A stretch of 64,000 nt of DNA from a virus (UHGV-0180032), one strand, 5' to 3'. Positions 11,035 to 58,191 are shown, counted from the first letter of the stretch. Made by a program: numbers and translations. The notes: a model not told the origin generated them from the letters alone.

Positions 11035-14000
11035 TTAATCGCGAATGATTACCGCCTGCACTTTATTGTTGGTGTCGATAAACGACATTACGCGCTCCTT
11101 GTTAAGATAAGGAGGTATCGGCAACGCAGCATAATCCGCCAGGTTGTTATTAAACTCGGTTGCCACTAACGCATTAAGCGTTTCAGGGTCTGAGCTTGTC
11201 CCGGCCAATTCCACGACGCGTACACGATTTAACGAGGAGTAGTTGCTGATATAATCCAACAGCGTACCGTAGAGTTTATTCCCGGTTATGCTGTCCGCCG
11301 TAGAGCGGATATTGGCACGCACTTCGTCCTCATAAAGTCCCCCTAATCCGTAGTAAATAGGGGTGTACGGATCGTTAACGATAGGCGCGAGGTTGAACCC
11401 GGTTAAACGGTCGGTCAGCGAGATTTTCTGCGTAGTACCACCTGCCGCCGTACAGCTTACGTATTTATCTGCCGCAGACAAATACACCACAATAGTGTAA
11501 ACAGTACCTGCTAAGGTCAGCGTTGCGTTAAACGTTAATTCGTTATTCGCACCACGCGTGTGGGTAAATGTCACATCAGGTTGTAACGTACTCCACGGTG
11601 CTGGGGTAACACGTTTGGTCGGCGTGAAGCCTAACACCACAGATCTCCCGTTACCGAAGTTTAAACCAAACCCGGCGTAACAATACTCACCGTTGCTGTC
11701 AGTTAAACGATAACCACGGGTGATAAGTAACGACAACCGCATAAACTCGTCATCGGTATTTTTCCAGCAACCCAGGATGGTTTCTAGCACCGTACCGGTT
11801 TTTGCGTTGCTTTCGGTTTCCCAACTGACTCGCATCCCCGTATTGTTAAATACTGGGAACAGGTTGTGGATAAACCCGTGAACGTTATCACTTACCCCTT
11901 TCGCATCAAACACCCACTTCGACGCAAGCTGGTCGTATTTCACACCGTCGAGTGCTTTATATCCGCCGCCAACCACATAACGCCAGTCTGCTTCACCACG
12001 CACAACCGCTTGAAGTCCAGAAGCCCAGCAGGGCGCACCTACTGTTAAATTGCTTAACCCCAGCACTGCACGTGAAGCAGAACGCTGAATGTGTGCGTTG
12101 TCATTAGCGACATGGTCTTTCAGCTCACGGAAATCCCCTAACCGTGTCACGTTACGTAGTTCAGTAACGAACACTTCAGAAAGGTCGTTAATACCGATCA
12201 ACCCCACGCGCGTCATGATATCCGTTTCAGCCTGACTGTAGCTGTCGTGAATAATGTACTTCGCTTTGTTATCGACAATGTCAACAAAAATCCCTGCGTA
12301 AACTTCCTTATTCAGATTCGGGAAACGTTCGGTAACGTTAACCGACATCAACGGTACGTTGTACGTTTCACCACCAATGAAATACGTGGAAGCAGGAAGT
12401 GTCACCAGGATTTTGTCTTTAACCGTAACGTCAATTAAGTCGTTACCGGACTTACCAAAGCGAATAATGTCAACTCGCGCACCCGAGTCAACCCCGCCGA
12501 CGGTATTCTCCAGTTTTTCAATCTGGGAAGTCTGCGCCATCACCACACTACTATCGAGTGCTAAAGTGACATCATCCACATCCAGACCGAACTTAATCAG
12601 ACCCCGTTTCGTGGTGTCTGCGTTTTCAACACCGAACACAGAAGACGGGTGTTGGTGAACCTTCGGTGAGTATTTGTCTAACTCAGTCTGCTGTGCAACA
12701 GAAATCGGCAAGTCGAGGTCCGGGGTATTCGCAACATTACCTAAACCAAAGGTAATTTTGTCGATAGTCACCGAACTGGTAAGCTGCATGTCGTTGATAT
12801 ACGACTTGGCAGCAACTAACTTACCGGTAAACTCTGCGTCTAGTTTTTCAATTAACGCGGGTGTAGCTGCAAGGTTTTCAGCCGTACCGAATTCGTCCGT
12901 TAACTGCCAGCAGGCTAACGTTGTGACGTCGTTGGCAACCGGAAGGATAAACGTTGCGACAAACGGTGATGCTTTAATCCCGCTGCCAGTAAGTTCCACG
13001 GTAGACGTCGACGCACCGTAGAACAGACCTGTACCGCCTGCGGTATTACCCGGCAAATACGGACCGACCGTAGTGGGGTCTAAGAGTTTCTTACCACGCC
13101 ACAACAGTCCACGGTCATCGGGGTATAGCACAAGCTGGTTATCGCCTGCCTGTAACGTAACAGGGTTGTTACCCGCATTAACATCGGTGGAGCCTTGACC
13201 GATAAACTTAATGGACTTCGGATCAACGACGAACTGGGCACCTAAACGTTTTTCGTCAACTACACCAGGTGCTTTCTTAATGGTAACCGTGTTACCTTTG
13301 TTTTGCGAACTAATAGAGACGCCGTCAGCAACATTATTGATCAGCGATTTAAAGTGATACCGATTCTCTAATGCTTCTAACGCAGAGTCCATGTTATCGA
13401 AGTTAATCCGGGCGCTATACGTTTTACCGTTTACGGTAATAACGGCGTCAAACACGTTCCCTGTACGCTTCAGTTGAAAACGCAGCGTAAAATCCCCATC
13501 CGGTATTGCTGGATCAGGAGCTTGAGAAATATACCGAACTGACGGTACCGGACTCCCGTAACCGTGCAACGACAGTTCGATAGTAAGAGTACCACCCCAG
13601 ACTTCACCGAAAATCTCTACGTACTTACCGGAGTTACTACCGGGATTTTCGTAGAAACGTAAACCGGCCCTACCGACTGCCTCATTACCAGACGCTGTTT
13701 TACGTCCAGTAACAATAAAGTCAATATCTTGCAGGTTAGCGGGTACCGCATTAAAAGAAGCACTAAATCCATTCTTCGTTCCTGTGTAACGAAGCGCGCC
13801 GTGATACGTGCGGCCTTGACTAACATAGCTTTCGCTAAAATAAGGACTCACGTATTTAGACATCGAAACCGGATCAACTTCTGTCGTGAACGAAGTAAAA
13901 CCGGGCAGCGTTCCAATGGTTCCGTCGGCCGTTTTCGTAGTTGACGTGCGCAGTAGTTTCTTTTGCGCAGCCAATGTTGCTTGCGTTGGATACTTAGCAT

Positions 14001-15357
14001 TAACATAATCTGTTAACTGCGGCTTCGTTTTTCCGTAAGCTAACGCTGTATCCGTCGCAATACCATTCAACTCTAACGCACGGATCGGGCCCCACGTATC
14101 GTTGTGCGGGTTGTCCTTACGTGTAACGTGTTCGTGCGCAGGTGCGTTGCGATAGAGCTGTTCTACTAACTGATGGTACTTAACGATTAGCTGATAAACG
14201 TCATTACTTACGTCTGCTTCTGGCGCACCAGGTAACGCAAGGAATTGAGCGTAATCGTTTTCAGCCGCCCACCAGTTTAAGTTAACGTTGGTTTTGTATT
14301 TCAGCCACTTCGCAACATCCGTTTTGGTGTAACCTGCTGAAAATTCGTCTGGCGGTGTGTCAACGTTAAAGGTGTAGTCCATGGACTGTTTGTTAGTCGT
14401 CACCTCGATAACGTATACACCGTTACCCGGTTGACGAACAACGCTAAACGTTAACTCGCCTTTTAATTCGTCGTCGGTCAAACCGTTGATTAACGTATAA
14501 TCATAATCGGTCGAACCGCTGCCTAACGCAACCGTCAGTCGTAGACCGATTTTACGTTGTTTTAATTGGAGACGAAGGATACTTGCACCACCGTTCGCGT
14601 AGCACAGCATCCAATCGATTTGTTCGTTCGGGTTAATACTCCCCATGTTCGGAAAAATAGCCGGGATACGGTATTTCATCGACAGGGAATATTCATTTAA
14701 CGTGGTGGTTTTGTACGTAACGGAGAAACGACGTTTAGCGGTGTTGTAAGTATACCCACCTTTGTTGTCGTACGTTGCGTACTGTTCAGATGTGATAACC
14801 GTACCATTAGCACGGTGTTCGATATCTAACGTGTTACGTGCAATCGGGTCTACCCGATTCACCACGTTACCTAACGAATCACCTAAGCCTGCAATGGCCT
14901 GCATTAATTCCAGTTCACCTTTCCAGTTTTCCCAGTCGAACTGAATGTCAACCGGTGGAAAGTAAACGTCGCCGATAACGGTATCCCATTGACACGCAGA
15001 CGGGTATTTATCTTTATTGAGTTCGCGTTCTGCGGTAATCTGTTCTTGGGTCGCTTCACCACAACCTACGGCGTGGTAATCTACCGTGAAATTCGATTTG
15101 TATTTGTCGTTAACAATCCAAATCATCCCGTGCACGAGATAGGCTGTGCGCAACATACCGGTCTCGTACGGGTGTGTAATAACGTAATCGTCGCCTAAGG
15201 TCAGTATTTTGCCGCCGCTCTTGACCACCAGGGATGTGGTGAAAAAAGGGGCGTGGGCAGGTACCAACATTCGGTACTTCGTACCAATGACGGCGACCGC
15301 TTCACCGGTTATTTTATTCCCCGGTTCTTTGAAGTGTGGGTCTAGGACGACAGCCAT
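11035..15357 (-). CDS. giant virion fibre/tailspike-like protein (1440 aa)
   Basis: Uninterrupted 4.3-kb ORF, first gene of the minus-strand operon; AGGAG RBS; N-terminal motif (HAPFFTT...GDDYVI) shared with neighbours. Confidence 0.55.
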   Translation of the reverse strand: MAVVLDPHFKEPGNKITGEAVAVIGTKYRMLVPAHAPFFTTSLVVKSGGKILTLGDDYVITHPYETGMLRTAYLVHGMIWIVNDKYKSNFTVDYHAVGCGEATQEQITAERELNKDKYPSACQWDTVIGDVYFPPVDIQFDWENWKGELELMQAIAGLGDSLGNVVNRVDPIARNTLDIEHRANGTVITSEQYATYDNKGGYTYNTAKRRFSVTYKTTTLNEYSLSMKYRIPAIFPNMGSINPNEQIDWMLCYANGGASILRLQLKQRKIGLRLTVALGSGSTDYDYTLINGLTDDELKGELTFSVVRQPGNGVYVIEVTTNKQSMDYTFNVDTPPDEFSAGYTKTDVAKWLKYKTNVNLNWWAAENDYAQFLALPGAPEADVSNDVYQLIVKYHQLVEQLYRNAPAHEHVTRKDNPHNDTWGPIRALELNGIATDTALAYGKTKPQLTDYVNAKYPTQATLAAQKKLLRTSTTKTADGTIGTLPGFTSFTTEVDPVSMSKYVSPYFSESYVSQGRTYHGALRYTGTKNGFSASFNAVPANLQDIDFIVTGRKTASGNEAVGRAGLRFYENPGSNSGKYVEIFGEVWGGTLTIELSLHGYGSPVPSVRYISQAPDPAIPDGDFTLRFQLKRTGNVFDAVITVNGKTYSARINFDNMDSALEALENRYHFKSLINNVADGVSISSQNKGNTVTIKKAPGVVDEKRLGAQFVVDPKSIKFIGQGSTDVNAGNNPVTLQAGDNQLVLYPDDRGLLWRGKKLLDPTTVGPYLPGNTAGGTGLFYGASTSTVELTGSGIKASPFVATFILPVANDVTTLACWQLTDEFGTAENLAATPALIEKLDAEFTGKLVAAKSYINDMQLTSSVTIDKITFGLGNVANTPDLDLPISVAQQTELDKYSPKVHQHPSSVFGVENADTTKRGLIKFGLDVDDVTLALDSSVVMAQTSQIEKLENTVGGVDSGARVDIIRFGKSGNDLIDVTVKDKILVTLPASTYFIGGETYNVPLMSVNVTERFPNLNKEVYAGIFVDIVDNKAKYIIHDSYSQAETDIMTRVGLIGINDLSEVFVTELRNVTRLGDFRELKDHVANDNAHIQRSASRAVLGLSNLTVGAPCWASGLQAVVRGEADWRYVVGGGYKALDGVKYDQLASKWVFDAKGVSDNVHGFIHNLFPVFNNTGMRVSWETESNAKTGTVLETILGCWKNTDDEFMRLSLLITRGYRLTDSNGEYCYAGFGLNFGNGRSVVLGFTPTKRVTPAPWSTLQPDVTFTHTRGANNELTFNATLTLAGTVYTIVVYLSAADKYVSCTAAGGTTQKISLTDRLTGFNLAPIVNDPYTPIYYGLGGLYEDEVRANIRSTADSITGNKLYGTLLDYISNYSSLNRVRVVELAGTSSDPETLNALVATEFNNNLADYAALPIPPYLNKERVMSFIDTNNKVQAVIIRD

Positions 15358-25323: not shown

Positions 25324-25932
25324 ATGAACGAAATTACTTTGGTTCGTTTTATCGAAGCGATGCATCGAAACGAAGCTAATCCGCACTCTCCGTTATTCAT
25401 CGATTTAATGGAGGAAGAAGTCGAAGGGTTCTTAGCGTACCCGCGTTTGAAAGCGTATTTCGAACGTAAAACACCAACCGCTTACGAGAAGTTGATGTAC
25501 GCGTTAGACAACCGTACTACGCTGAACACCACACCGTTTAAAGCGCTGGAAGCAATTGACCCTACCGGGGGCGCAGGTATCCCACAACGTGTTGTGTTCT
25601 ACTACATCGACAACGGCCGTATTAAAGCCGACGTTGTAAACTGGATCTCCGAAGGGGAAATCCCAGAAACGCGTACTTTTAACCTCTGTCCGGTGGAAGA
25701 AGGTTGGGTCGCAGGAACGCATTATTCCTATCCGTATCAAAGCATCAAATCGCCTTATCTGTATCCGGTGTATTTAGATGACGTTACGCCAGGCAAATGT
25801 ATTCCCGTTACCAATCTGATTTGCTTACTGACGATGGAAGTTGTTGCGTCAGATGCAGGCCAGGCTTGGGTTGAGCAATCGAAGAATATCCAAAACTGGC
25901 AGGAGATGGGTTACAAACTCTACCAGCCGTAA
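25324..25932 (+). CDS. hypothetical protein (202 aa)
   Basis: ORF between two terminators; no recognisable motif. Confidence 0.5.
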   Translation: MNEITLVRFIEAMHRNEANPHSPLFIDLMEEEVEGFLAYPRLKAYFERKTPTAYEKLMYALDNRTTLNTTPFKALEAIDPTGGAGIPQRVVFYYIDNGRIKADVVNWISEGEIPETRTFNLCPVEEGWVAGTHYSYPYQSIKSPYLYPVYLDDVTPGKCIPVTNLICLLTMEVVASDAGQAWVEQSKNIQNWQEMGYKLYQP

Positions 25933-25937
25933 TACCA

Positions 25938-25986
25938 CGAGAGAACCTTCGGGTTCTCTCCCTTCTCTTTTATTTTTTTTTCTTTT
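25938..25986 (+). terminator. intrinsic terminator
   Basis: GAGAGAACC/GGTTCTCTC stem with TTCG loop followed by a long T-run. Confidence 0.75.
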
Positions 25987-26017
25987 TACACCACGCTCCG
26001 TGAATATGGAGGTGGAC

Positions 26018-28522
26018 ATGTTAAAAGTTGAACGTATTGTACTTAAAGGATTTACCGGAATGGGGTTACACGAAATCGAAACCTTCGATTTTACTATCCA
26101 TTCCCCGACCACCATTATCCTCGGTGGTAACGGCTGCGGTAAGACCAGCTTACTGTCCGTGTTTCTACCTATCGCACCTTCGAAATCCGAATTCCGTGAC
26201 GGGGGTTCTTACACCAATATCTGTTTGGTTAACGACCATCGTTACAAGTTTAAAGTTGCACGTAAAGGCAACTCACTGGTTTGCGATATCGAGAACCTGA
26301 CGACGGGTACCAAAATCGTCGAGCAAGGTAATGCGAAAGTGTACAACTCTCGCGTGGAAGAAATCACGGGTATTACAAAAGAGATTAAAGAGTTACTGAA
26401 CGGGGAAGTGCTTTTAACCGATGCAGGAACGGAACTGCGTCGTAAGTGGTTCTACCGTTTAAGTACATCAGACTTAACGTACGCGTTAGGTTTTTATCAA
26501 CGTTTACGAAAAAACCTGACGATGCTAAACGGCGGTATTGAAATCACCAGCCGTAAAATTGCAGAGTTGCGTACCCGCGTAATTGATAACGAGGAAGAAC
26601 GACAGCAGTTAGCAACACGGTTAAAAGCATTAGAAGCAGATTTACGTGAACTCAACAAACAGATCGAACAACTGCCTGGTCTGAATCGTGACGTTACGGT
26701 GGCAACGATTCAATCGCTATTGCTTAAAATCGAAGCACCGATTAATGCTATCTTGGAACACCGTGGTGGATTACCTACGGAAGAACAGGTAGAGGAAGCA
26801 CGACGCGTTGAAGCCACTGCCCGTGAAGCGGTGGTCTCTGCTGAAACAGAACTGTCTATGCTAAACAAAGATTTGTCTTTGTTGATGGACGAGTCTACCC
26901 GCCAAGATTACCTGATGCGAAATCACGAAGGGTTAAAGAACACGGTTGCGAAACTGCGCGAGTTATTAAAGCAGTGGGACACTGAGCACCTTTTCCCTGA
27001 ACTGTTTGCGGAGACCGTTAACATCGACCAGCTTAAAGCAGCGACGGATGCGCGTGTCTGGGGACAACGTTTAGGAACAACGCTGGACGCCATTAAATCA
27101 ACGGAACGGTTGAACGTACTGGAAGAGAAACTGTTGACCTTAGACCAAAACTCGTCTGGGTTGCGTGACCGACTGCAACGTGTTGAAAACGTATTGCAGA
27201 ACCTCAACCACGAACGGAATCACTATTTGGAAACCGCCGAGGTTGATTGTCCGCAGTGTCAGTTTAAATTCCGTCCGGGTGTCCGTCGTTCTTTGCCTGA
27301 ATTGGAAGAAGCCATTCGTGGGCAGATGGAGCAACGTAATACGTTACAGACTCAACTTGATTCCGTGTTGCGAGACCGTACGGAATTAGAATCGGACGTT
27401 AATTACATGCGTCAAGTACGAGAAATCGTTTTAACATACTCGAAAGACCCGGTATTGAGTTTGTTCTTTAAACGTCTCCAGGAGCGGAATGTCTTTACGG
27501 ATAACCGCAGTCAGTTCGGCAGTTTGTGCGCAGAGTTCGATCGTGAACTTTATTCCGCAATTGAGTACCACGAAACGAAACACCGTTTCGCTAAAGCGGA
27601 AAAAGAGTGGGCAAACGCAGTTGCAGCGGTAGGTAACGTTGACGGTGCACTACAGCAGAAAATTGCCTTCCAACAGGAACGTTTGGGTAAGGCAACAGAA
27701 ACGCTCTCAGAGCGCCGTAGAGAGCACGCAGTTGCTAATGATACCTTTTGTTATCTAAACGAACTTAAAGCCACTGTAGACAATTTTAATGCGGTTTTTG
27801 AGCGTTTAGAGAACGATGTTAAGGTAACATTAACCAACACGGTGGTCGAAACGTTATTAAACGCCCGAGAAAACAAGTTGGATGCGTTCACCACAGCACG
27901 AGAACGGTATCGTCAAATGGAAAACGAACTCAACCAACTTACTGCGTTAGAAAAGGAGTTATCAGATTTACAAGCGCAGCAATTCAATAACAAGCTGATG
28001 ATTCAAGCGTTCTCGCCCGAGAAAGGGGTACTACGCAAATACTTCTACAACGCTATCGTGAGAATCACGGAATTGATGACGCGGTATATCGAACAAGTCT
28101 GGACCTACCCTATGCGGGTCATGCCGTGTGACTTAACCGACGGTGACTTAGACTACACCTTCCCAGTGCAGTTGAAAACCCATCCTGAACCGGTACCTGA
28201 CGTACGGAAAGGGTCGAAAGCACAGCGAGCCATCTTTAATTTGATGTTTCGTTTAACCGCTTACAAGGCCCTGAAACTCCATCAGTATCCGCTACTGTTG
28301 GATGAACCGTCAGAAGGGATGGATGAAGAACACCGAAATAACCTCGTTGGGTTTATTAAAACCTTGGCGAATTCCGGTGAGTTCTCTCAGTTACTGGTGG
28401 TGTCTCACGAAGCAGAAATTCATTCAAAACTTAACGAAGCCGCATACTGTGTTATTGAACCTGAAGGCGTAACACTGCCTGCGGTTTACAATGAAGGAGT
28501 AAAAATTGTCTACGCAAACTGA
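26018..28522 (+). CDS. Rad50/SbcC-like recombination ATPase (T4 gp46-like) with zinc hook
   Basis: Walker A GGNGCGKTS near the N-terminus; long heptad-rich middle with CPQC hook; C-terminal KGSKAQRAIFNLMF (signature-like), LLLDEPSEGMD (Walker B/D-loop) and VVSHE (H-loop); start 26018 (or 26006) chosen over the ORF-track 25841, which would run through the upstream terminator. Confidence 0.75.
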   Translation: MLKVERIVLKGFTGMGLHEIETFDFTIHSPTTIILGGNGCGKTSLLSVFLPIAPSKSEFRDGGSYTNICLVNDHRYKFKVARKGNSLVCDIENLTTGTKIVEQGNAKVYNSRVEEITGITKEIKELLNGEVLLTDAGTELRRKWFYRLSTSDLTYALGFYQRLRKNLTMLNGGIEITSRKIAELRTRVIDNEEERQQLATRLKALEADLRELNKQIEQLPGLNRDVTVATIQSLLLKIEAPINAILEHRGGLPTEEQVEEARRVEATAREAVVSAETELSMLNKDLSLLMDESTRQDYLMRNHEGLKNTVAKLRELLKQWDTEHLFPELFAETVNIDQLKAATDARVWGQRLGTTLDAIKSTERLNVLEEKLLTLDQNSSGLRDRLQRVENVLQNLNHERNHYLETAEVDCPQCQFKFRPGVRRSLPELEEAIRGQMEQRNTLQTQLDSVLRDRTELESDVNYMRQVREIVLTYSKDPVLSLFFKRLQERNVFTDNRSQFGSLCAEFDRELYSAIEYHETKHRFAKAEKEWANAVAAVGNVDGALQQKIAFQQERLGKATETLSERRREHAVANDTFCYLNELKATVDNFNAVFERLENDVKVTLTNTVVETLLNARENKLDAFTTARERYRQMENELNQLTALEKELSDLQAQQFNNKLMIQAFSPEKGVLRKYFYNAIVRITELMTRYIEQVWTYPMRVMPCDLTDGDLDYTFPVQLKTHPEPVPDVRKGSKAQRAIFNLMFRLTAYKALKLHQYPLLLDEPSEGMDEEHRNNLVGFIKTLANSGEFSQLLVVSHEAEIHSKLNEAAYCVIEPEGVTLPAVYNEGVKIVYAN

Positions 28523-34152: not shown

Positions 34153-34161
34153 AATAAAAGC

Positions 34162-34198
34162 TACCCTACTCCCGAAAAGGAGTAGGGTAATTTCTTTT
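34162..34198. terminator. intrinsic terminator (CCCTACTCC family), between convergent genes
   Basis: TACCCTACTCC/GGAGTAGGGTA stem followed by ATTTCTTTT; adjoins the stop of the minus-strand gene at 34197. Confidence 0.7.
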
Positions 34199-37189: not shown

Positions 37190-37230
37190 GCCTCCTGTAT
37201 CCTTCGGGATACAGGAGGTATTTTCTTTTT
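37190..37230 (+). terminator. intrinsic terminator
   Basis: 12-bp stem CCTCCTGTATCC/GGATACAGGAGG with TTCG loop followed by TATTTTCTTTTT. Confidence 0.8.
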
Positions 37231-37272
37231 AACGTTTAACCCCCTTCTAATGTATAGAGAAAGGAGCTTAAC

Positions 37273-38007
37273 ATGACATACCCGAAAACGATTCAACCCA
37301 CCTTACCGACGCTGGTAATTGGTGCTGACGCAGAAACCAAATCACTGCGTCCTGATGCGTATCTGTTAACCACAGGCTTAGTTGCCTTTGACGTACCGAC
37401 TTTAAAAATGGTAGGGTCGTCGTATATGCGTATTGATCCTAACGACCCTAAAGCAAAAGCTGTGTTCCACGAAGATCCACAGACCGTAGGATGGTGGGAA
37501 GGTAAAGGGGAACCTGAATACGCGCCGTCTCGCGAAGCCTACACGGAAGCATGGAGCGGTACAACACCTATGCCGGAAGCGCTGTGGGCGATGCGTAAGT
37601 GGTTAGACGAAATCACCGGTAAACACAATTTCGTGATTACCATGCGTGGGCCGGATTTCGATTCTCCGATTTTCATGAACGCGTTTGCGCAATGTGACGT
37701 TCCTCCAGGTAAATTCCGTAAGTTCAGCGCGTTAGACAGTGACCGCACCGCAGAACGTTTAGCGCTGGCGTTTGGTTTTGAGCCTGATTTGACCGTTGAG
37801 CAAGTTTACTGGACGCGGGGCAAACCGGCATTTGAACACCATGCTTTGTGGGATGCCGCGAAAGAAGCTTATACCACCGCACGTATTTATCACCTTGCAC
37901 TGATTACCCGCGAGTACGGGTACGAACGTGCTAAAGCCTGTCACGAAGAACTGAAAACCGGTGAGTATATTCCACCACAGATTCGTGATCAGTTAACCAG
38001 GGATTAA
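37273..38007 (+). CDS. dexA: DEDDh-type 3'-5' exonuclease (DexA-like)
   Basis: Exo I-like VIGADAETKS, Exo II-like RGPDFDSPIF and Exo III-like EHHALWDAAKEAY motifs; AAAGGAG RBS. Confidence 0.55.
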   Translation: MTYPKTIQPTLPTLVIGADAETKSLRPDAYLLTTGLVAFDVPTLKMVGSSYMRIDPNDPKAKAVFHEDPQTVGWWEGKGEPEYAPSREAYTEAWSGTTPMPEALWAMRKWLDEITGKHNFVITMRGPDFDSPIFMNAFAQCDVPPGKFRKFSALDSDRTAERLALAFGFEPDLTVEQVYWTRGKPAFEHHALWDAAKEAYTTARIYHLALITREYGYERAKACHEELKTGEYIPPQIRDQLTRD

Positions 38008-38009
38008 GA

Positions 38010-39521
38010 ATGAAGAACGTTGATGTTGCTGTACTTTATACCGACGGTAGCCATTTAACCTCACCGATGGGAACAGGCGGTGGGATTCACGGCTACCTGT
38101 TTAACAAGGAAGAGATTGTTGACGGTGGCGTTTATCGCCACCCTACTATTCCCGAAGGGATTACGACCTCAGGCTATCGCCAGATTAACAAAGAGGAAAA
38201 ACTTCCTACGTTACCAGACTCTGTTGAGTTCGTGGACTGCGTTATTCCGGTACCGAAACACCACCACTCCGATGTTGCAGAGATTGTTGCTTTTTTAACC
38301 GTTTTTGAAAAAGCACCATTCGTTGCAAAAAACTACGTTATCTATATCGATGCGTCCTACGTTGTGAATACGTTTAACGATTGGATTGACGGTTGGGCTA
38401 AGCGGGACTGGCGACGGGCTGATGGCACCCCTATCGCGAACCTTGAGCTGGTTCAACGGATGTGGGAAATTAAGAAACGTCTGAAGCGTGAAGGGAAAGG
38501 GATTCGTGTTCTTAAAATCAAAGGACACTCTGGTCACTACGGTAACGAACGGGCTGACGAGCTGGCACGAAAAGGATCGTCCATCTCTGCACACGGAGAA
38601 GGCTTAGATTATCAAGCGTACTGGTCGGCAGACGAAATTCCGGAAGAACAGCAGGAAGAAATTGTCAGCGAAGGCGTTAACGTTGCCGCGTTTCCTGATA
38701 TTTGCGTAACCAAGTTCTGTTACCCGATGGTAAATGAGCAGCACCCTACGGTTAAAGTAAACGGTGAAAATCTCTATTACATGTTCGGGGGTAACCACGC
38801 AAAACAGAAGGACGATATTGTCTTCGTTGGGAAATACATTCCTGATGCGCAGTTCTGTGTGATGTTTACACGTGAGCCGTGGACGAACGTTTACGATTTG
38901 GTTAACGCCCACGCTGCTAAAGCCTGGGAGGGTGTACCACGTTTGCGTCAGTTTGACCCTATCGCTGTTGTGTTCAACTTGTTCGTAAAACGTAAGAAGT
39001 TTGCGGAAGCGGCGGCTAATGGCATTCCGGTTGACAAAATGCACTTTAGCGAAGACAAGAACCTGTGGATGTACGAAGACTTGTCTATCAGTCGTATTCT
39101 GCGTCCCGCGTTATTGTCATACCGCTGCATTTCCATTCGTGATGAACTGGCAGAATGGTTACGTGACTGTTTGGAAGGCAAATCGAACGTTGTCTTAAAC
39201 GACATTACCGATTTGCTTTATGACGAAAAAGGTAAACCCACCAAAGACTTTTACCGAAACGTGGATAAAGGGTTTGACGTTTCCATTAAAATCCCTAACG
39301 GGAAGGTTGCCGTTAAAACTATTTTGACACGTGCTATCGACTTACCGACGCGTACGGAAATCAACCGTATCAAAGAACCGAATGGACGATTCTACGTCGC
39401 TGTACGTCGTCCAGAACGTCAGTACGTTGAATACGCGTTAGTGTATATCGGTGAGAAGTATCACGGTCTGTGGTGTGGTTATTATTCAAACAAACGAATA
39501 TTGACCGATAAGGAACTTTGA
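38010..39521 (+). CDS. rnhA: RNase HI domain protein with a roughly 300-aa C-terminal extension
   Basis: N-terminal 190 aa contain the RNase HI hallmarks: ...LYTDGS..., E in AEIVAF, D in YIDASYVV, W..W..DG.PI.N, and KGHSGHYGNERADELAR. Confidence 0.8.
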   Translation: MKNVDVAVLYTDGSHLTSPMGTGGGIHGYLFNKEEIVDGGVYRHPTIPEGITTSGYRQINKEEKLPTLPDSVEFVDCVIPVPKHHHSDVAEIVAFLTVFEKAPFVAKNYVIYIDASYVVNTFNDWIDGWAKRDWRRADGTPIANLELVQRMWEIKKRLKREGKGIRVLKIKGHSGHYGNERADELARKGSSISAHGEGLDYQAYWSADEIPEEQQEEIVSEGVNVAAFPDICVTKFCYPMVNEQHPTVKVNGENLYYMFGGNHAKQKDDIVFVGKYIPDAQFCVMFTREPWTNVYDLVNAHAAKAWEGVPRLRQFDPIAVVFNLFVKRKKFAEAAANGIPVDKMHFSEDKNLWMYEDLSISRILRPALLSYRCISIRDELAEWLRDCLEGKSNVVLNDITDLLYDEKGKPTKDFYRNVDKGFDVSIKIPNGKVAVKTILTRAIDLPTRTEINRIKEPNGRFYVAVRRPERQYVEYALVYIGEKYHGLWCGYYSNKRILTDKEL

Positions 39522-40189
39522 TGCTGATTGTTTTTAGTCAAGCGTTATCGATGGCACCGAGTTATATCCAGATACGCTTTTCAGCAATTGCGCGTCAGCA
39601 GTGGGGCTTTAAAGCCCCCTATTCTGACGACCACTATACACTCGGAGAAGTAGCACTTGAACTCGCCTTACGCTCATTGTGGGAAATTATCGCATTGTAT
39701 AATGCAGGTTGTGATATACCGAAAGATTGTTTCCCACAACGGGTGATTGCGCAAGGTACTACGAACACTTACGGTAATCCGGCATTGGTAGAAGAGTGCT
39801 TAGGCTACGCTAACCAGTCTGGGGAATTGCAACACAACTTTAATCTGGTGATTAACAAAGTCTGGAGTGAGCTGGAAAGCTACCCTGAAAAGATTATCTG
39901 GTTTGATCGTAACCAATTCGTTAAGGAGGTGGCCAGTAAACGACCTGTACGTTTAGTTACCTTAAAACCCACCGACCTTGATTTGAAACAAACGTATCCC
40001 TTCCCGGAAGAAATTCAACTTTCTCCAGAAACTGTAGGTCACACTATTTTCAAACAAGGTGACGCCTGGATATTGCCTCACGATCTAGACCGTTACTTGC
40101 TCAACTCCGATCAGATTCACTCCGGCTATGATTCTCTCGTGAAAGCGTTTCACATCGATCCCTATTTCGCTAAAAATTTTCTTAGATAG
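39518..40189 (+). CDS. hypothetical protein (223 aa)
   Basis: ORF overlapping the upstream stop (ATGA). Confidence 0.45.
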   Translation: MMLIVFSQALSMAPSYIQIRFSAIARQQWGFKAPYSDDHYTLGEVALELALRSLWEIIALYNAGCDIPKDCFPQRVIAQGTTNTYGNPALVEECLGYANQSGELQHNFNLVINKVWSELESYPEKIIWFDRNQFVKEVASKRPVRLVTLKPTDLDLKQTYPFPEEIQLSPETVGHTIFKQGDAWILPHDLDRYLLNSDQIHSGYDSLVKAFHIDPYFAKNFLR

Positions 40190-42530: not shown

Positions 42531-42561
42531 ACCCTAGCTTCGGCTAGGGTAACTTTATTTT
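42531..42561 (+). terminator. intrinsic terminator
   Basis: ACCCTAGC/GCTAGGGT stem with TTCG loop followed by a T-rich tract. Confidence 0.65.
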
Positions 42562-42583: not shown

Positions 42584-43516
42584 ATGTATTTGTACAAAAG
42601 TAAAAAAGTAAAAGGTATTAGAGACTGCCTTAGACAAATGGGGAGTCAGCATCTAGAAAATGTCATGGAAGAAAATCAAACAAAAGAAAATCCTGTCTCG
42701 AAATGGATAAAAAAGAATCGTAAGCATTTAACTAATGCCTTTATACCCTACGACGCTGAGTTAGGTCTCAAAGATCCCCGTTCCCTTCACGCACAAACAT
42801 TGGCAATTGGATGGCTATACGGTGGTGCTTCCTTAATATCCAATCGAGCACTTAGAGAACTTGTTTTCGAGACTGAGATGCCCAGTAAATTCCCCGAAGA
42901 ATGGTTGGACTTTATACCCACATGGACTGTGGCAATCGATGTAGGTAAAGAGGATGAGACTTTCTTTCTCGGTTATCGAAAAAACGGGGAGAGAAGGTTT
43001 ATTATAATTGCTACAAATACTGATTACGGGTTAACAGAAGGCGTTACCACGATCGCCACCTGCTCGTTAGAGATATGTAGCGTTGGAAACGGGCTTGTTG
43101 AAATCGATTATACAACTGGCGTACAGACCGAACAAGAGAAGACGTTATGGCTATCACTGGCCAAAACCGCCATATCGTTGATATTTCTCTGTACGCTAAT
43201 CCCGCCTAATCTCAGAGGGTCTTTCAATGACATTAAGTTCAAAGAAATCAAAAAGAATGGTAGCATAAGTCACGAAATCAAACCTCGTGAACGTGACGTT
43301 AAAATAGACATCACGCCAGGACAAGTGAAATATCTAAAGGGATTTAACACCGACTTGAAAACCATGGAAGGTATCAAACACGCCAAGGCTGCACATATTC
43401 GTCGTGCGCACTGGCGTAGATACTGGGTTGGCCCAAGAAACGGTGAAAGGAAGAGAAAACTTTACTGGATTCCACCGACATTTGTCCGAGGTTACGTACC
43501 CCACACGCAAGACTAG
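42584..43516 (+). CDS. hypothetical protein; paralog pair with C-terminal AHIRRAHW-R-W-GP motif
   Basis: AGGAGCA RBS; C-terminus KAAHIRRAHWRRYWVGPRNG...WIPPTF. Confidence 0.55.
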   Translation: MYLYKSKKVKGIRDCLRQMGSQHLENVMEENQTKENPVSKWIKKNRKHLTNAFIPYDAELGLKDPRSLHAQTLAIGWLYGGASLISNRALRELVFETEMPSKFPEEWLDFIPTWTVAIDVGKEDETFFLGYRKNGERRFIIIATNTDYGLTEGVTTIATCSLEICSVGNGLVEIDYTTGVQTEQEKTLWLSLAKTAISLIFLCTLIPPNLRGSFNDIKFKEIKKNGSISHEIKPRERDVKIDITPGQVKYLKGFNTDLKTMEGIKHAKAAHIRRAHWRRYWVGPRNGERKRKLYWIPPTFVRGYVPHTQD

Positions 43517-43526
43517 GAGAATTATA

Positions 43527-44411
43527 ATGTTAAGACGCAGAATTTATGGAGACACGCTTCGACGTATTAGTGAAGCTATAGAGACTGCACACAAAGACTT
43601 GTTTGGTCTGAAAGAAGATCGTTTTCTAACGTTTGTCAGGGAACACAAGAGACAACTTCCCGTAACCTTTCTGCCCGTTAACGACCCAACGTACCGTGAG
43701 TTCGGCACCACCAAACAGGTGCCGTATTCTATCCGTCAATCATTAGGTTTGGGTTGGCAATACGCAGGTATTGAAATTATCTCTGATAACGAGTTGATGG
43801 CGTTACTTGCAGACACAGAACGTTTAACGGATATTCCGTACGCGTGGATTGAAGCCATCCCTTCATTCACCTTTTCCGTGACTGTCAAGATTAACGAACT
43901 TCCTGCTACGCTCTTTATCGGTCGTCGTAAATTCGAAGGTGAAGAAGTATTGTTCGTTTTACGGTGGGTGGAGATAAATCAGCGGCACTGTTGGACAACC
44001 AAGATTTATCGGTTCAACAGAAAGGCAGATGACTTTGTTAGTTTAGAGCCTTACTTTGCTAACGAGTCAAAGGACGAGGAACTTCTGGATGAGGTACATA
44101 TCGGTTTATATCTTTCCTCGCGGGTGAAGAAATCGGATCGCGAGAGACGGGAATACCGTGGTAGAACGACACGTTACGTACCTGATACAGAAATCCTTCC
44201 ACGCAGAGAACCTGTCGTTGTTGACGTCAGTCCAGTACAACGCGAAGACTTAGAGAAGCAACGCAGGGAAGGCAGGAGAATCTGTTTAACGCCGCATCGT
44301 GCTGCACACATACGCAGGGCACACTGGAAACGGGTCTGGTGTGGGCCAATGACAGGACCACGCTGGCAGGAGTGGCGATGGATTGCACCCACCTTTATAT
44401 CTGGTTTTTAG
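43527..44411 (+). CDS. hypothetical protein; paralog of 42584-43516
   Basis: AGGAGA RBS before ATG 43527 (track start 43404 overlaps the upstream gene); C-terminus RAAHIRRAHWKRVWCGPMTG...WIAPTF; also shares mid-region GW-Y-G motif. Confidence 0.55.
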   Translation: MLRRRIYGDTLRRISEAIETAHKDLFGLKEDRFLTFVREHKRQLPVTFLPVNDPTYREFGTTKQVPYSIRQSLGLGWQYAGIEIISDNELMALLADTERLTDIPYAWIEAIPSFTFSVTVKINELPATLFIGRRKFEGEEVLFVLRWVEINQRHCWTTKIYRFNRKADDFVSLEPYFANESKDEELLDEVHIGLYLSSRVKKSDRERREYRGRTTRYVPDTEILPRREPVVVDVSPVQREDLEKQRREGRRICLTPHRAAHIRRAHWKRVWCGPMTGPRWQEWRWIAPTFISGF

Positions 44412-44426
44412 CGTGAAAATAAAGAT

Positions 44427-44473
44427 TACCCCTAGACCTTGTGGTCTAGGGGTAGCTTTTACTTTTTATTTTT
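44427..44473. terminator. bidirectional intrinsic terminator
   Basis: 12-bp stem TACCCCTAGACC/GGTCTAGGGGTA followed by a T-rich tract; between convergent gene ends 44411 and 44466. Confidence 0.7.
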
Positions 44474-45633: not shown

Positions 45634-47130
45634 ATGGCAGGCCCAACTAAGCAAGTTATCGGTGAAGTAATTCGTCCTCGTTTTAACGTTTATACCATCA
45701 TGGACCACGCCTTAGGCAACTACGAAAGAGGCGAAGATGGTTTGTACTACCTTAACGGTGGTTTTGCCCACATCATGGGTTTCGCGGGTCGTGGTAACAC
45801 CTTCAAATCTACACTGTTGGATTTCTGTATCTTCCAAATCCTACAACGCTATAAAGCAGAGTGGGGTTCGAAATACGATACCGAAGTGTCTGCTGCCCTC
45901 GATCGCTTAGAGACCGGTTATATTTCTGCCATGCACGCCAACGGTATTGACGATGGAACTTCGGTACTGGAACTTATTCACGAAGGTCGTTATAACCTCG
46001 TTGGTTCTGACGTGATGCCTGGGGAACAGTATTACAGTGACTATATTCGTGACGAAGTGGAAAAACGCTTCAAGCAGTATATGTCTGGTAAAACCCGCGT
46101 AACACCGTTCCTTGACCCGGTTCGTCGTAAGCAAAAAGAAATCCTTGACCCGTGGCTGTATTCTATCGACTCCCTGTCTGAGTGGCACTCGTCTTCTCTG
46201 GAAGACAAGCACGCTAAAACGGATATCGGTGATTCCGATCAGAACATCCTCAACGCCCACGATGCCTTACAGAAATCGAACATGATGAGCCGTTGGCCGT
46301 CTGCGTTTGCCCGTGGCGGTTTCTACATGGGCTTTGTTGCACAGATGGCGGACGACTCCGGTAAGGCGATGGCGGGTGGTCGTCAAGGACAGAAAGCAAA
46401 CGCGAAACTGCTGGACGATGCGAACGACGATCTCAAATTCGCAGGAATTCCTCGTCGTCAGTTAAGCTTCCTGACCAACTCGTTTATTGTTGCGACAAAA
46501 TCAGGCGAGCTGAAAAAAGACCAGAGTTATAACGCCCAGACCGGTGTTAACGAAGAACTTTACCCAACCGCACGTTCAAAAGCCATGAACGCATCGGTTA
46601 ACGACCTGAAAGTTATCACCTTTACACAATACCGTGCTAAAGGCGGTCACACAGGCGTGAAGTTCCAGATGATCTTCTCGCAAGAGATGGGTCTACTGTA
46701 CCACCTGAGCCTGTGGCATTACCTGAGTGACACCCTGAAAAAATCCGAATTTGGCTTTACGTCCAGCGGTAGTGGTGGTTCCATTAAAGAACTCCAGATT
46801 CTGCCTGGTGTTAAATTCCAGCGTACGACGATTCGTGACATGATCGACGATAACCCGAAACTGCGTCGGGCATTAGAAATCACGGCTGCGATTGCGTACA
46901 TGCAAAACAACTACCATCGTTTAGAGGTTAAATACCACCTCACGATGGAAGAAATCTACAAACTCATTGATGAAAAATGGGATTGGAATGAGATTCTGGA
47001 AAACACCGTAGAATACTGGATGTTTAAAGACCAGGAAACGAAAGGTGGTAAACGTACGTTAACTGCCCGTACGATTCTGGGTATGGCCGTGGACGGCCTG
47101 GAACCGAAGTTCCTGACCAAAAAGAAATAA
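45634..47130 (+). CDS. uvsX: UvsX/RecA-family recombinase
   Basis: N-terminal ...YLNGGFAHIMGFAGRGNTFKSTLLDFCIFQILQRY parallels T4 UvsX ...GGMQSGLLILAGPSKSFKSNFGL...YMRQY as recalled from memory; size of 498 aa is appropriate. Confidence 0.6.
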   Translation: MAGPTKQVIGEVIRPRFNVYTIMDHALGNYERGEDGLYYLNGGFAHIMGFAGRGNTFKSTLLDFCIFQILQRYKAEWGSKYDTEVSAALDRLETGYISAMHANGIDDGTSVLELIHEGRYNLVGSDVMPGEQYYSDYIRDEVEKRFKQYMSGKTRVTPFLDPVRRKQKEILDPWLYSIDSLSEWHSSSLEDKHAKTDIGDSDQNILNAHDALQKSNMMSRWPSAFARGGFYMGFVAQMADDSGKAMAGGRQGQKANAKLLDDANDDLKFAGIPRRQLSFLTNSFIVATKSGELKKDQSYNAQTGVNEELYPTARSKAMNASVNDLKVITFTQYRAKGGHTGVKFQMIFSQEMGLLYHLSLWHYLSDTLKKSEFGFTSSGSGGSIKELQILPGVKFQRTTIRDMIDDNPKLRRALEITAAIAYMQNNYHRLEVKYHLTMEEIYKLIDEKWDWNEILENTVEYWMFKDQETKGGKRTLTARTILGMAVDGLEPKFLTKKK

Positions 47131-55073: not shown

Positions 55074-55382
55074 ATGGAAAACTATTCGGGTTGGGCAATT
55101 TCGCAGTGCATTGGCTATTCTTTACGTTCTTTAGTGCGTACACTTTATAACAAAAACTCAGGCGAAGCTATTACACCACAGTTACTGGACAAATTGGAAG
55201 TCGAAGTTAACCACAAATTAAAGCAGTTACTCGACAACCACGTAAGAACAATGCGTTGGGAGTTCTTGTTACGTGGTAAGAAGCCTTCAATTACCGTTGT
55301 AGCAGAAGGCAGTGAAATTGTTCTCCAATCCAACGCAGACCTGTTTGAAATTTTAACTGAACTAGAAAAGGACAAAATCTGA
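55074..55382 (+). CDS. hypothetical protein (102 aa)
   Basis: Stop overlaps the start of the downstream thymidylate-synthase gene (TGATG). Confidence 0.5.
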
Positions 55383-56416
55383 TGAAACAGTATTTAGCGT
55401 TAATGCAAGACATTCTGGATAACGGTGTTGTCAAGAAAGACCGCACAGGCGTAGGGACACTTTCTGTATTTGGCCGTCAATTACGTTTTGACTTGAAAGA
55501 AGGTTTCCCATTAGTTACTACGAAAAAGGTTCACCTGAAAAGTATCATCCATGAGCTGTTGTGGTTCTTAAACGGTGACACTAACGTGAAGTACCTGCAA
55601 GAGAACGGGGTAAAAATTTGGAACGAATGGGCGAATGAAGAAGGGAACTTAGGGCCAGTATATGGTAAACAGTGGCGTGAATGGCGAGACTGTAAGGTTG
55701 TGGAAAGCCATGACGTAGGACGTACACAACAACTAATGCAGCGGGGTTACAAGTATATCGGGAATATGAAGGAAGATGGCACAACGTATTTGGTTTATGA
55801 AAAACCACATGACCAGATCAGTAAAGTTATCCAACAGCTTCGTGAAGACCCAGATTCTCGTCGTATTATCGTTAGTGCCTGGAACGTAGCCGACCTGGAC
55901 GATATGGCACTTAACCCATGTCACAACTATTTCCAATTCTACACTACGGAAATGTCACTGCTTGAGCGACTGGATTGGTACGAAGTAAACGAGCCGGAAA
56001 AATTTGCGAACGCACCGCTTATTAATCACGAAGATATTGATGATGAAGAACGACTTCATGAAACTTTAGATCGTGAGGGCATCCCACGCCGTAAGCTTTC
56101 ATGTTTTTACATGATGCGCAGCAACGATTACCTACTTGGCGCGCCATTTAACATCGCTTCTTACGCACTGTTAACCTATATGGTTGCTCAACAACTGAAC
56201 ATGGTTCCAGACGAGTTGGTTTATAGTGGTGTGGACGTTCATCTGTATTCCAACCATCTGGAGCAAGCAAAACTTCAGCTTACACGCGAACCCTACACGT
56301 TACCTAAACTGGTTATCAAACGTAAACCTGATTCTATCTTCGATTACAAATACGAAGACTTCGAATTAGTCGGCTATCAAGCTCATCCACATATTGCTGC
56401 CCCCGTCGCAGTATAA
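55382..56416 (+). CDS. thyA: thymidylate synthase family enzyme (ThyA-like; dUMP-dependent) with two insertions
   Basis: Collinear with E. coli ThyA as recalled: [55 protein letters not shown], catalytic PCH-FQFY, RS-D...[10 protein letters not shown] (Asn retained, so dUMP not dCMP), PKL.IKRKP.SIFDY..EDFE; about 38-aa and about 50-aa insertions. Confidence 0.85.
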
Positions 56417-57360: not shown

Positions 57361-58191
57361 ATGGGCGAACGTTTTAACATCAACGCTATCTACAACATCG
57401 TAGTTAATCCTGGTCAACACCTGGAAGAAGTTAACGCACAACTGCGTGCTCTGAATGAGAAGGCAATACAGTTCGACGCCATTTACACAATCGGTGTAAA
57501 CCCTGGTACCAATCGTATTCGCGTGGAAGGTAAACGACACACCGGCACTCAAGAACTGGACATCGAAACGATTGAAGCACCGATTAAACTTACCGACGCC
57601 GTTTATAACGGTACTGTGATGCACACCGTGTCGGTTCCGGTCTATTCTATTGCGAACTGTGCAGAGCATGTTAAAGGTTGGTCCAAAGAACGTGGCATCC
57701 TCGATAACGGTAAACTGGAAACTCAAATCACGAAATTCTTTGAAGAGTTTGGTGAAATCGCAACAGGTATCAGTAAAAACAAACCTGAACTGATCATGGA
57801 TGGCATCGGCGATGCGTTAGTGGTTTTAGTGAACATCCTGGAACTGGGTAAAGACAAACTGTCTGGTGAAATGACAACCGCTGAAATCATCGAGCACGGT
57901 TTACAATTGCAGGTAGATGATGTCGCTGACGTTGAAGAACATTTTGATGACAACGGGTATCCACATCATTTGTATCTCCACGCTACCGAAATCTTCGCTA
58001 CCGCATTTATTCGCTCCGATGCTGGTTTCGATCAGCTTAACTGGGCTTTGTACCGCCTTGCAAAACTAGCTCTCTACTATCGTCTTGACATTCGTCATTG
58101 TTTCTCTTTAGCCTGGCACGAAATCAAAGACCGTAAAGGTTACCTGAACGCCGACGGCATCTTTGTAAAAGAAGCAGACCTGGCGAAATAA
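57361..58191 (+). CDS. mazG: MazG-like nucleotide pyrophosphohydrolase domain protein (C-terminal) with N-terminal extension
   Basis: C-terminal half has KFFEEFGEIATG...DALVVLVNILELG and ...AWHEIKDRKGY, resembling the all-alpha MazG/HisE E-x-x-E ... D-x-L motifs; GGAG RBS. Confidence 0.45.
   Translation: MGERFNINAIYNIVVNPGQHLEEVNAQLRALNEKAIQFDAIYTIGVNPGTNRIRVEGKRHTGTQELDIETIEAPIKLTDAVYNGTVMHTVSVPVYSIANCAEHVKGWSKERGILDNGKLETQITKFFEEFGEIATGISKNKPELIMDGIGDALVVLVNILELGKDKLSGEMTTAEIIEHGLQLQVDDVADVEEHFDDNGYPHHLYLHATEIFATAFIRSDAGFDQLNWALYRLAKLALYYRLDIRHCFSLAWHEIKDRKGYLNADGIFVKEADLAK

Follow-up and report, generated by a model that had tools for sequence, protein, structure and literature searches.

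Rhc (RNase H-clamp) is the name given in two bioRxiv preprints of October 2026 (PMC13648687, PMC13648698) to a protein of nucleus-forming jumbo phages which is also the subject of a 2025 paper in Nature (PMC12571901). The protein from phage PhiKZ, gp155 (PhiKZ155 or Nlp2), is a nuclear cargo whose import depends on Imp1/PicA (10.1101/2024.03.27.586873), and it is essential, being needed for both nucleus maturation and genome amplification (PMC12571901). In vitro it shows genuine RNase H activity, yet its D102N mutant still complements fully (PMC12571901). The essential role of the PhiKZ protein is therefore a non-nucleolytic one (PMC12571901). Basu et al. report cryo-EM structures of PhiKZ DNAP-N (gp82) and DNAP-C (gp50) with the C-terminal domain of Rhc and dsDNA, where one Rhc subunit is seated on the polymerase at its thumb, palm and palm insertion, and Rhc and the thumb together grip a 16-bp primer–template duplex (PMC13648687). 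With Rhc(D102N), the polymerase shifts from primer degradation to extension. [quoted passage not shown]

In Goslar, Rani et al. find that replication is lost and the nucleus halts at the nascent stage when the corresponding protein, gp190, is knocked down, that its clamp domain binds DNAP-C and is enough alone to stimulate synthesis in vitro, and that DNA-binding mutants and assembly mutants both fail (PMC13648698). Moreover, RNase H activity and DNA binding by the clamp are each separately needed for a subset of the late genes to be transcribed, a requirement which the authors read in terms of R-loop removal (PMC13648698). Both of the key mechanistic studies are preprints that have not been through peer review (PMC13648687, PMC13648698), and they disagree with the PhiKZ data on the weight of the catalytic activity of Rhc. 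The main function ascribed to Rhc in the published work is, in other words, that of an accessory (processivity) subunit of the polymerase, together with the removal of RNA:DNA hybrids and R-loops in the phage nucleus.

The window analysed here is a stretch of 64,000 nucleotides of viral DNA (UHGV-0180032), one gene of which very probably encodes the Rhc of an uncultured, nucleus-forming jumbo phage akin to SPN3US and Asesino (Table 1). By orthology, the function of this Rhc would be that of a polymerase clamp combined with an RNase H. Both this open reading frame and the one preceding it have exactly the boundaries given in the original prediction, which had been made from the DNA alone.

Table 1. 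Features of the Rhc locus, with positions counted from the first nucleotide of the window.
Feature	Position	Strand	Evidence or remarks
Strong terminator-like hairpin; 13-bp stem, TTCG loop, T-rich tail	37190–37219	+	
Putative DEDDh 3'–5' exonuclease gene, 244 aa, Rv2179c/DexA-like	37273–38007	+	PF16473, phrog_255, motifs
Rhc (RNase H-clamp) gene, very probable assignment, 503 aa + stop	38010–39521	+	ORF call, phrog_3265, homology
RNase HI domain, residues 1–195	38010–38594	+	Catalytic D12, E91, D114, H173, D183
Family-specific insertion of ~45 aa, residues 32–76	38103–38237	+	pLDDT ~90; E49 and P80 nearly invariant
Acidic linker, residues 198–225	38601–38684	+	8 D/E, no K/R
Predicted clamp-like C-terminal domain	38685–39518	+	Numerous near-invariant basic residues
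Downstream gene, 222 aa, phrog_9472	39521–40189	+	ATG overlaps Rhc stop (TGATG)

The best protein matches to the Rhc of the window extend over all 503 residues and come from Erwinia phage Asesino (66% identity), phiEaH2 (65%) and Salmonella phage SPN3US and its relatives (63%). The genes in question, SPN3US gp059 and Asesino gp226 (phrog_3265; 63–66% identity), are annotated only as ‘ribonuclease’ and share the local synteny of the window, with a divergent virion structural gene followed by two small genes, the exonuclease, the RNase H and hypotheticals. Neither of them matches the window at the DNA level, and when the 2.2-kb region was compared by megablast with 50,697 phage records no match was returned, such that the lineage is distinct from SPN3US and Asesino, and uncultured. 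From the Rhc similarity and the gene order, the window would belong to an uncultured jumbo phage within the Chimalliviridae, the nucleus-forming family, on its SPN3US/Erskinevirus branch. In this regard, Asesino is reported to be nucleus-forming (PMC11724907). A tblastn search of the 64-kb window with PhiKZ DNAP-C, ChmA, PicA, helicase and nvRNAP subunits found nothing. DNAP-C is present in SPN3US-like and Erskinevirus phages (~34% identity to PhiKZ gp50), where it lies ~170 kb from Rhc, and it is from such relatives that we infer the presence of the partner polymerase genes, chimallin and PicA in this genome.

The relationship to the studied Rhc proteins is more distant and is collinear in both cases, BLASTP aligning residues 5–493 with PhiKZ gp155 (25% identity, E = 4e-32) and residues 73–496 with Goslar gp190 (24% identity, E = 7e-27). 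When the C-terminal domain alone is used as the query it matches Goslar (E = 7e-9), PCH45, RSL2/RSF1, 2050HW/Moabite, RTH11 and others, so on sequence this domain is family-wide. These similarities identify the protein as an orthologue of Goslar gp190, PhiKZ gp155 and SPN3US gp059. It shares with Goslar gp190, PhiKZ gp155 and PhiPA3 gp176 its length and two-domain plan, an RNase HI active site bearing the insertion, a flexible linker and a clamp-like C-terminus. As in Goslar and PhiKZ, Rhc has small genes and a divergently transcribed virion structural gene on its upstream side. The differences from Goslar and PhiKZ are that identity is only 24–25%, that some of the residues mapped to DNA binding and to the polymerase interface are not the same, and that a DEDDh exonuclease precedes Rhc in this subclade where Goslar and PhiKZ have none.

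The residues mutated in the two studied proteins were mapped on an alignment of Rhc with the Goslar, PhiKZ and SPN3US proteins and 13 metagenomic homologues. The catalytic aspartate mutated in both studies, Goslar D119 and PhiKZ D102, corresponds to D114. Three of the five DNA-binding positions of Goslar are basic in the protein of the window (K235, K265 and K329 for Goslar R233, K259 and R318), whereas Goslar K262 and R264 align with the non-basic D268 and I270, with K267 adjacent. At the polymerase interface, Goslar L363, which is M346 in PhiKZ, corresponds to an invariant leucine, L369, and Goslar W365 to Y371. Of the Goslar ‘assembly’ positions, which number five, S272, Y505 and L507 are unconserved, as are PhiKZ F478 and I479. 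Such divergence of interface residues is what co-evolution of the interface with the polymerase, if it occurs, would produce.

The N-terminal part of the protein is a type-1 RNase H domain with a complete DEDD(H) active site, in keeping with the original prediction, which had located an RNase HI core in the first 190 residues or so. The Pfam RNase_H model matches residues 77–190 (E = 5.4e-21), its late start being due to the insertion, which separates the N-terminal β-hairpin of the RNase H fold from its strand 3. The active site was placed from a HMMER alignment to human RNase H1 together with the invariants of the family, and the catalytic residues listed in Table 1 are invariant or nearly so in 41 homologues. 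A pairwise alignment to E. coli RnhA was rejected because it misplaces E48, again on account of the 45-residue insertion. The domain also bears a tryptophan-rich basic protrusion (W125, W129 and W134).

A length of 503 residues is unusual for an RNase HI, and this is the sole point in favour of reading the gene as an artefact, whether of two genes run together through a sequencing error or of a single gene that an undetected frameshift has split. The open reading frame is single, and the phrog_3265 profile (‘ribonuclease’) matches it end to end, with residues 1–503 on profile positions 2–496 of 496 (E = 7.7e-168). At least 80% of the protein is covered in one frame by 176 phage records, the 480–540-residue architecture is common to 46 metagenomic clusters, and independent contigs, among them the 223,842-bp metagenomic contig NODE_10 of ENA ERZ1744496, carry a gene call for the identical protein. 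The artefact reading is thereby already refuted, its probability being practically nil, and the gene is a single one. Minus-strand open reading frames at 38295–38594, 38604–39044 and 38948–39205 were discarded, as they overlap the strongly conserved coding frame of Rhc.

The remaining 300 residues had been described in the original prediction as lacking any recognisable motif and as uncharacterised. The former stands, since no Pfam or NCBIfam model matches residues 196–503; the latter does not, since the domain has been characterised by cryo-EM, biochemistry, knockdown and complementation in the related phages (PMC13648687, PMC13648698, PMC12571901). A PDB sequence search with Rhc likewise gave RNase H matches only, save for an insignificant cystatin-like one (E = 0.15). 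In an AlphaFold2 model of the full-length protein, built from a 41-sequence alignment, both domains are predicted with confidence (mean pLDDT 88.9) and only the core of the linker, residues 209–221, is predicted to be disordered (pLDDT < 50), the invariant W205 being placed in a short strand within the linker. An acidic, partly disordered linker accords with the PhiKZ cryo-EM maps, in which the RNase H domain cannot be seen (PMC13648687).

Residues 198–503, when predicted alone, give a pLDDT of 89.1 and a pTM of 0.85, and a fold search with them is headed by the ASFV clamp (5.3), Ddc1 (5.1) and RAD9A (4.9), followed by T4-type gp45, archaeal and eukaryotic PCNAs and bacterial β clamps, and includes the herpesvirus proteins UL44, PF-8, UL42 and BMRF1. 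Taken over this and a further fold search with the C-terminal domain, the clamp matches have low Z scores (4–6.7) and are partial, ca 150 residues being aligned. By themselves such scores are weak evidence for a clamp-like fold, yet the list is coherent and agrees with both preprints. In a Foldseek search of BFVD the domain is found in chimallivirus RNase H proteins of 450–557 residues (E = 1e-43 to 8e-10; Wellington, Noxifer and RP12 among them) and in one protein of 233 residues, and the next match is a phage β clamp (E = 0.02). In other words, predicted structure and fold search both assign the domain to a sliding-clamp-related fold, and what the original prediction took for an uncharacterised extension is a known, clamp-like fusion partner, the very finding that it had named as telling against it.

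Conservation within the domain can be considered in the same light. It has a pI of 8.7 and is rich in near-invariant basic residues (K265, K267, K275, R328, K329, R365, R372, R377, K409, K412, R416, R448, R453 and R496), and within the SPN3US-like set H263, D398, T400 and K409 are invariant. The last four, being polar, could be taken to mean that the domain is not a passive DNA-binding module and is instead an enzyme, namely the missing primase or another nucleotidyl transferase, there being no recognisable primase in chimalliviruses (PMC7824862). Such an enzyme is very improbable, and a clamp-like, DNA-binding domain is the preferred reading.

It is useful to set this clamp-like domain beside the known processivity factors. 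PCNA, the 9-1-1 complex, T4/RB69 gp45, the bacterial β clamp and the ASFV clamp are the best structural matches of residues 226–503, albeit with the low Z scores and partial alignments given above. The Rhc of the window is not classed as a canonical clamp, because PhiKZ Rhc is reported to be without oligomerisation elements and to be present as one subunit per polymerase. To our knowledge, no clamp loader has been found in chimalliviruses. The herpesvirus processivity factors (HSV UL42, HCMV UL44, KSHV PF-8 and EBV BMRF1) have no detectable sequence relationship to Rhc and, unlike it, are without a fused nuclease domain; UL44 and PF-8 dimerise. Retroviral reverse transcriptase carries its RNase H on the polymerase chain itself, where it acts after reverse transcription, whereas in Rhc the RNase H belongs to a DNA-binding accessory subunit, the polymerase being a DNA-dependent one of the B family.

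The two-domain anatomy, the full active site, the clamp-like fold, the part-conserved DNA-binding patch and the full-length homology to Goslar gp190 and PhiKZ gp155 are seen directly in the protein of the window. By orthology, its mode of action would be as follows. Rhc would be imported into the phage nucleus, where its C-terminal clamp-fold domain would act as a single subunit, with no ring being formed. One face of this domain would dock on the split B-family polymerase, DNAP-N plus DNAP-C, at its thumb and palm, and the opposite, concave and basic face would hold the nascent duplex, such that exonucleolysis gives way to processive synthesis. The RNase H domain, for its part, would cleave the RNA of RNA:DNA hybrids lying in front of the polymerase, as well as that of R-loops arising from transcription in the nucleus.

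The gene upstream of Rhc most likely encodes a DexA/Rv2179c-type 3'–5' exonuclease for nucleic-acid turnover; a DexA-like DEDDh exonuclease had been proposed originally. It scores 47.3 bits (E = 2.6e-12) with Pfam PF16473, the Rv2179c-like 3'–5' exoribonuclease domain, whose gathering score is 27, and it also matches phrog_255 (‘exonuclease’; E = 4.9e-46). Its sequence contains D19-A-E21 as Exo I, D128 and D130 as candidates for Exo II, and H189-x4-D194 as Exo III. The DEDDh motifs and a PF16473 match above the gathering score are thus held in common with M. tuberculosis Rv2179c and with T4 DexA, which we take to belong to PF16473; the difference is that the exonuclease of the window has no significant match in a PDB sequence search and none in NCBIfam. 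The terminator-like hairpin closes the preceding unit, so that the exonuclease gene, with a ribosome-binding site AAAGGAG at 37261–37267, opens a new co-directional block. Its stop codon, TAA at 38005–38007, is followed by 2 nt and then by the ATG of Rhc, 6 nt upstream of which is an AGGGA Shine–Dalgarno-like element. The stop of Rhc, TGA at 39519–39521, in turn gives its A to the ATG of the next gene, an overlap at which a second, independent gene caller also arrives on a public contig. The next terminator-like sites of comparable strength on the + strand are at 42531–42550 and 44426–44455, and Rfam and tRNA scans of the whole 64-kb window gave no matches.

This tight junction is the basis on which the two genes had been read as a translationally coupled, functional pair, the full proposal being a stand-alone RNase H for primer removal or host-DNA degradation, forming a two-enzyme unit with the exonuclease and having an accessory C-terminus of unknown role. 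The 2-nt spacing and the Shine–Dalgarno-like element agree with coupling in the window. Indeed, the exonuclease lies directly 5' of Rhc in every jumbo phage with comparable coordinates, that is, in SPN3US-like, Erskinevirus, Wellington/ChrisDB/Machina, EarlPhillipIV and Vibrio pVa-21 phages. The coupling is not universal, however, as the genes overlap or are 2 nt apart in SPN3US-like phages but are separated by 15 nt in Asesino and by 166 nt in pVa-21. Moreover, tblastn finds orthologues of the exonuclease only in jumbo phages of the SPN3US-like, Erwinia, Cronobacter and Vibrio pVa-21 types, with distant relatives in small temperate phages and none in Pseudomonas phages or Goslar, and in PhiKZ and Goslar unrelated small genes occupy the place where an exonuclease would adjoin Rhc. 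Since these two phages have no adjacent exonuclease and since the gap varies, the exonuclease is a subclade-specific accessory neighbour which falls outside the definition of Rhc, and a functional pair of family-wide extent is not borne out.

The nucleolytic roles in the same proposal fare differently from one another. Host-DNA degradation finds no support for Rhc. Primer removal, which Iyer et al. assign to the RNase H1 of group-1 jumbo phages (PMC7824862), is possible, but it is not the source of the essentiality of Rhc, given that catalytically dead PhiKZ Rhc rescues fully (PMC12571901). The demonstrated function of the C-terminal domain in published work also speaks against an RNase H acting alone. 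A further point concerns location. Phage RAY gp064, a ‘putative exonuclease’ and divergent member of PF16473 that is not adjacent to Rhc, is reported to be cytoplasmic, whereas Rhc is nuclear. In BLASTP it has no similarity to the exonuclease of the window and was rejected as its orthologue in spite of the shared Pfam family, and so it gives only a weak hint that exonucleases of the PF16473 type may act outside the nucleus. Overall, the stand-alone RNase H with its exonuclease partner is decidedly unlikely, and the assignment as an Rhc that serves the polymerase is preferred.

A narrower role for the exonuclease is conceivable alongside this Rhc assignment. In the SPN3US/Erskinevirus/pVa-21 subclade it might be an add-on to the Rhc–polymerase machine, as a nuclear 3'–5' exo(ribo)nuclease that either disposes of the short RNA products of the RNase H domain, standing in for oligoribonuclease in a compartment that keeps out host enzymes, or trims 3' ends at RNA-primed starts. 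We regard this as rather unlikely. If true, it would make a four-component replication module that is undescribed for PhiKZ or Goslar, and the conserved exonuclease–Rhc gene pair itself goes unmentioned in the published Rhc work.

The overall emerging picture is that the protein of the window is a new and divergent member of a known family, for which we infer the mechanism by orthology and for which the residue-level support is good but incomplete. The striking biology of Rhc is already published and the window raises no new mechanistic question; what it contributes is a divergent orthologue from an uncultured phage, along with a 41-sequence alignment that brings out the residues invariant across the SPN3US-like branch and the only partial retention of the interface residues mutated in Goslar and PhiKZ. 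For the family as a whole, Rhc answers how nucleus-forming jumbo phages copy more than 200 kb of DNA with neither a recognisable sliding clamp nor a recognisable primase.

Rhc, the RNase H-clamp protein, carries in its RNase HI domain an insertion of ~45 aa that separates the first beta-hairpin of the fold from strand 3, and it is because of this insertion that the Pfam match on the protein is truncated. The segment is conserved and is confident in the predicted structure, and the residues E49 and P80, considered along with it, are nearly invariant. Moreover, the Goslar and PhiKZ proteins contain an insertion at the equivalent position of the RNase H domain. The papers on Rhc that were read do not take up the feature.

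In all the SPN3US-like, Erskinevirus, Wellington/Machina-type, EarlPhillipIV and Vibrio pVa-21 genomes that were compared, a PF16473 (DEDDh) exonuclease gene adjoins that of Rhc on its upstream side, as it does at 37273-38007 in the window; at the same position in PhiKZ and Goslar, no PF16473 exonuclease lies immediately upstream of Rhc. In phage RAY a divergent member of the family, for which a cytoplasmic location has been reported, is sited elsewhere (13675-14427 of the RAY record). The two bidirectional hairpins listed below have stems of 11-13 bp, and resemble the terminator-like hairpin at 37190-37219, which precedes the exonuclease gene, in stem length and in having a 4-nt loop.

DNA-metabolism genes form a block in the window's right half. 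Across the whole 64 kb, a tRNA scan found no tRNA genes and an Rfam scan gave zero matches to Rfam families. The three very large structural genes match one another's PHROG families (phrog_7449, 8078, 7557 and 2163) and look like a tandem array of paralogues. The adjacent phrog_6160 ORFs, which overlap by ~110 nt as their coordinates are listed, may have arisen by tandem duplication; the second of them may have a mis-set start.

Features of the window, with positions and strand
Feature	Window	Strand	Remarks
Three adjacent genes, 1728, 1394, 1440 aa	1559-15357	-	PHROG virion structural
ORF, 279 aa	18400-19239	+	No PHROG match at E<=1e-5
ORF, 375 aa	19816-20943	+	No PHROG match at E<=1e-5
SbcC-like gene	25841-28522	+	
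Bidirectional terminator-like hairpin	34161-34190		At switch of gene orientation
Rhc insertion	38103-38237		Residues 32-76
phrog_6160 ORF	42584-43516	+	PHROG match; family of unknown function
Second phrog_6160 ORF	43404-44411	+	PHROG match
Bidirectional terminator-like hairpin	44426-44455		At switch of gene orientation
UvsX-like recombinase gene	45634-47130	+	
Thymidylate synthase gene	55382-56416	+	
MazG-like gene	57361-58191	+	

Outside Rhc, a BFVD structure search with its clamp-like domain matched I1VX43, a viral protein of 233 aa (E=5.9e-9; TM 0.52, normalised to the target), from which an N-terminus of RNase H size is missing. I1VX43 may be a stand-alone or split form of the clamp-like domain.
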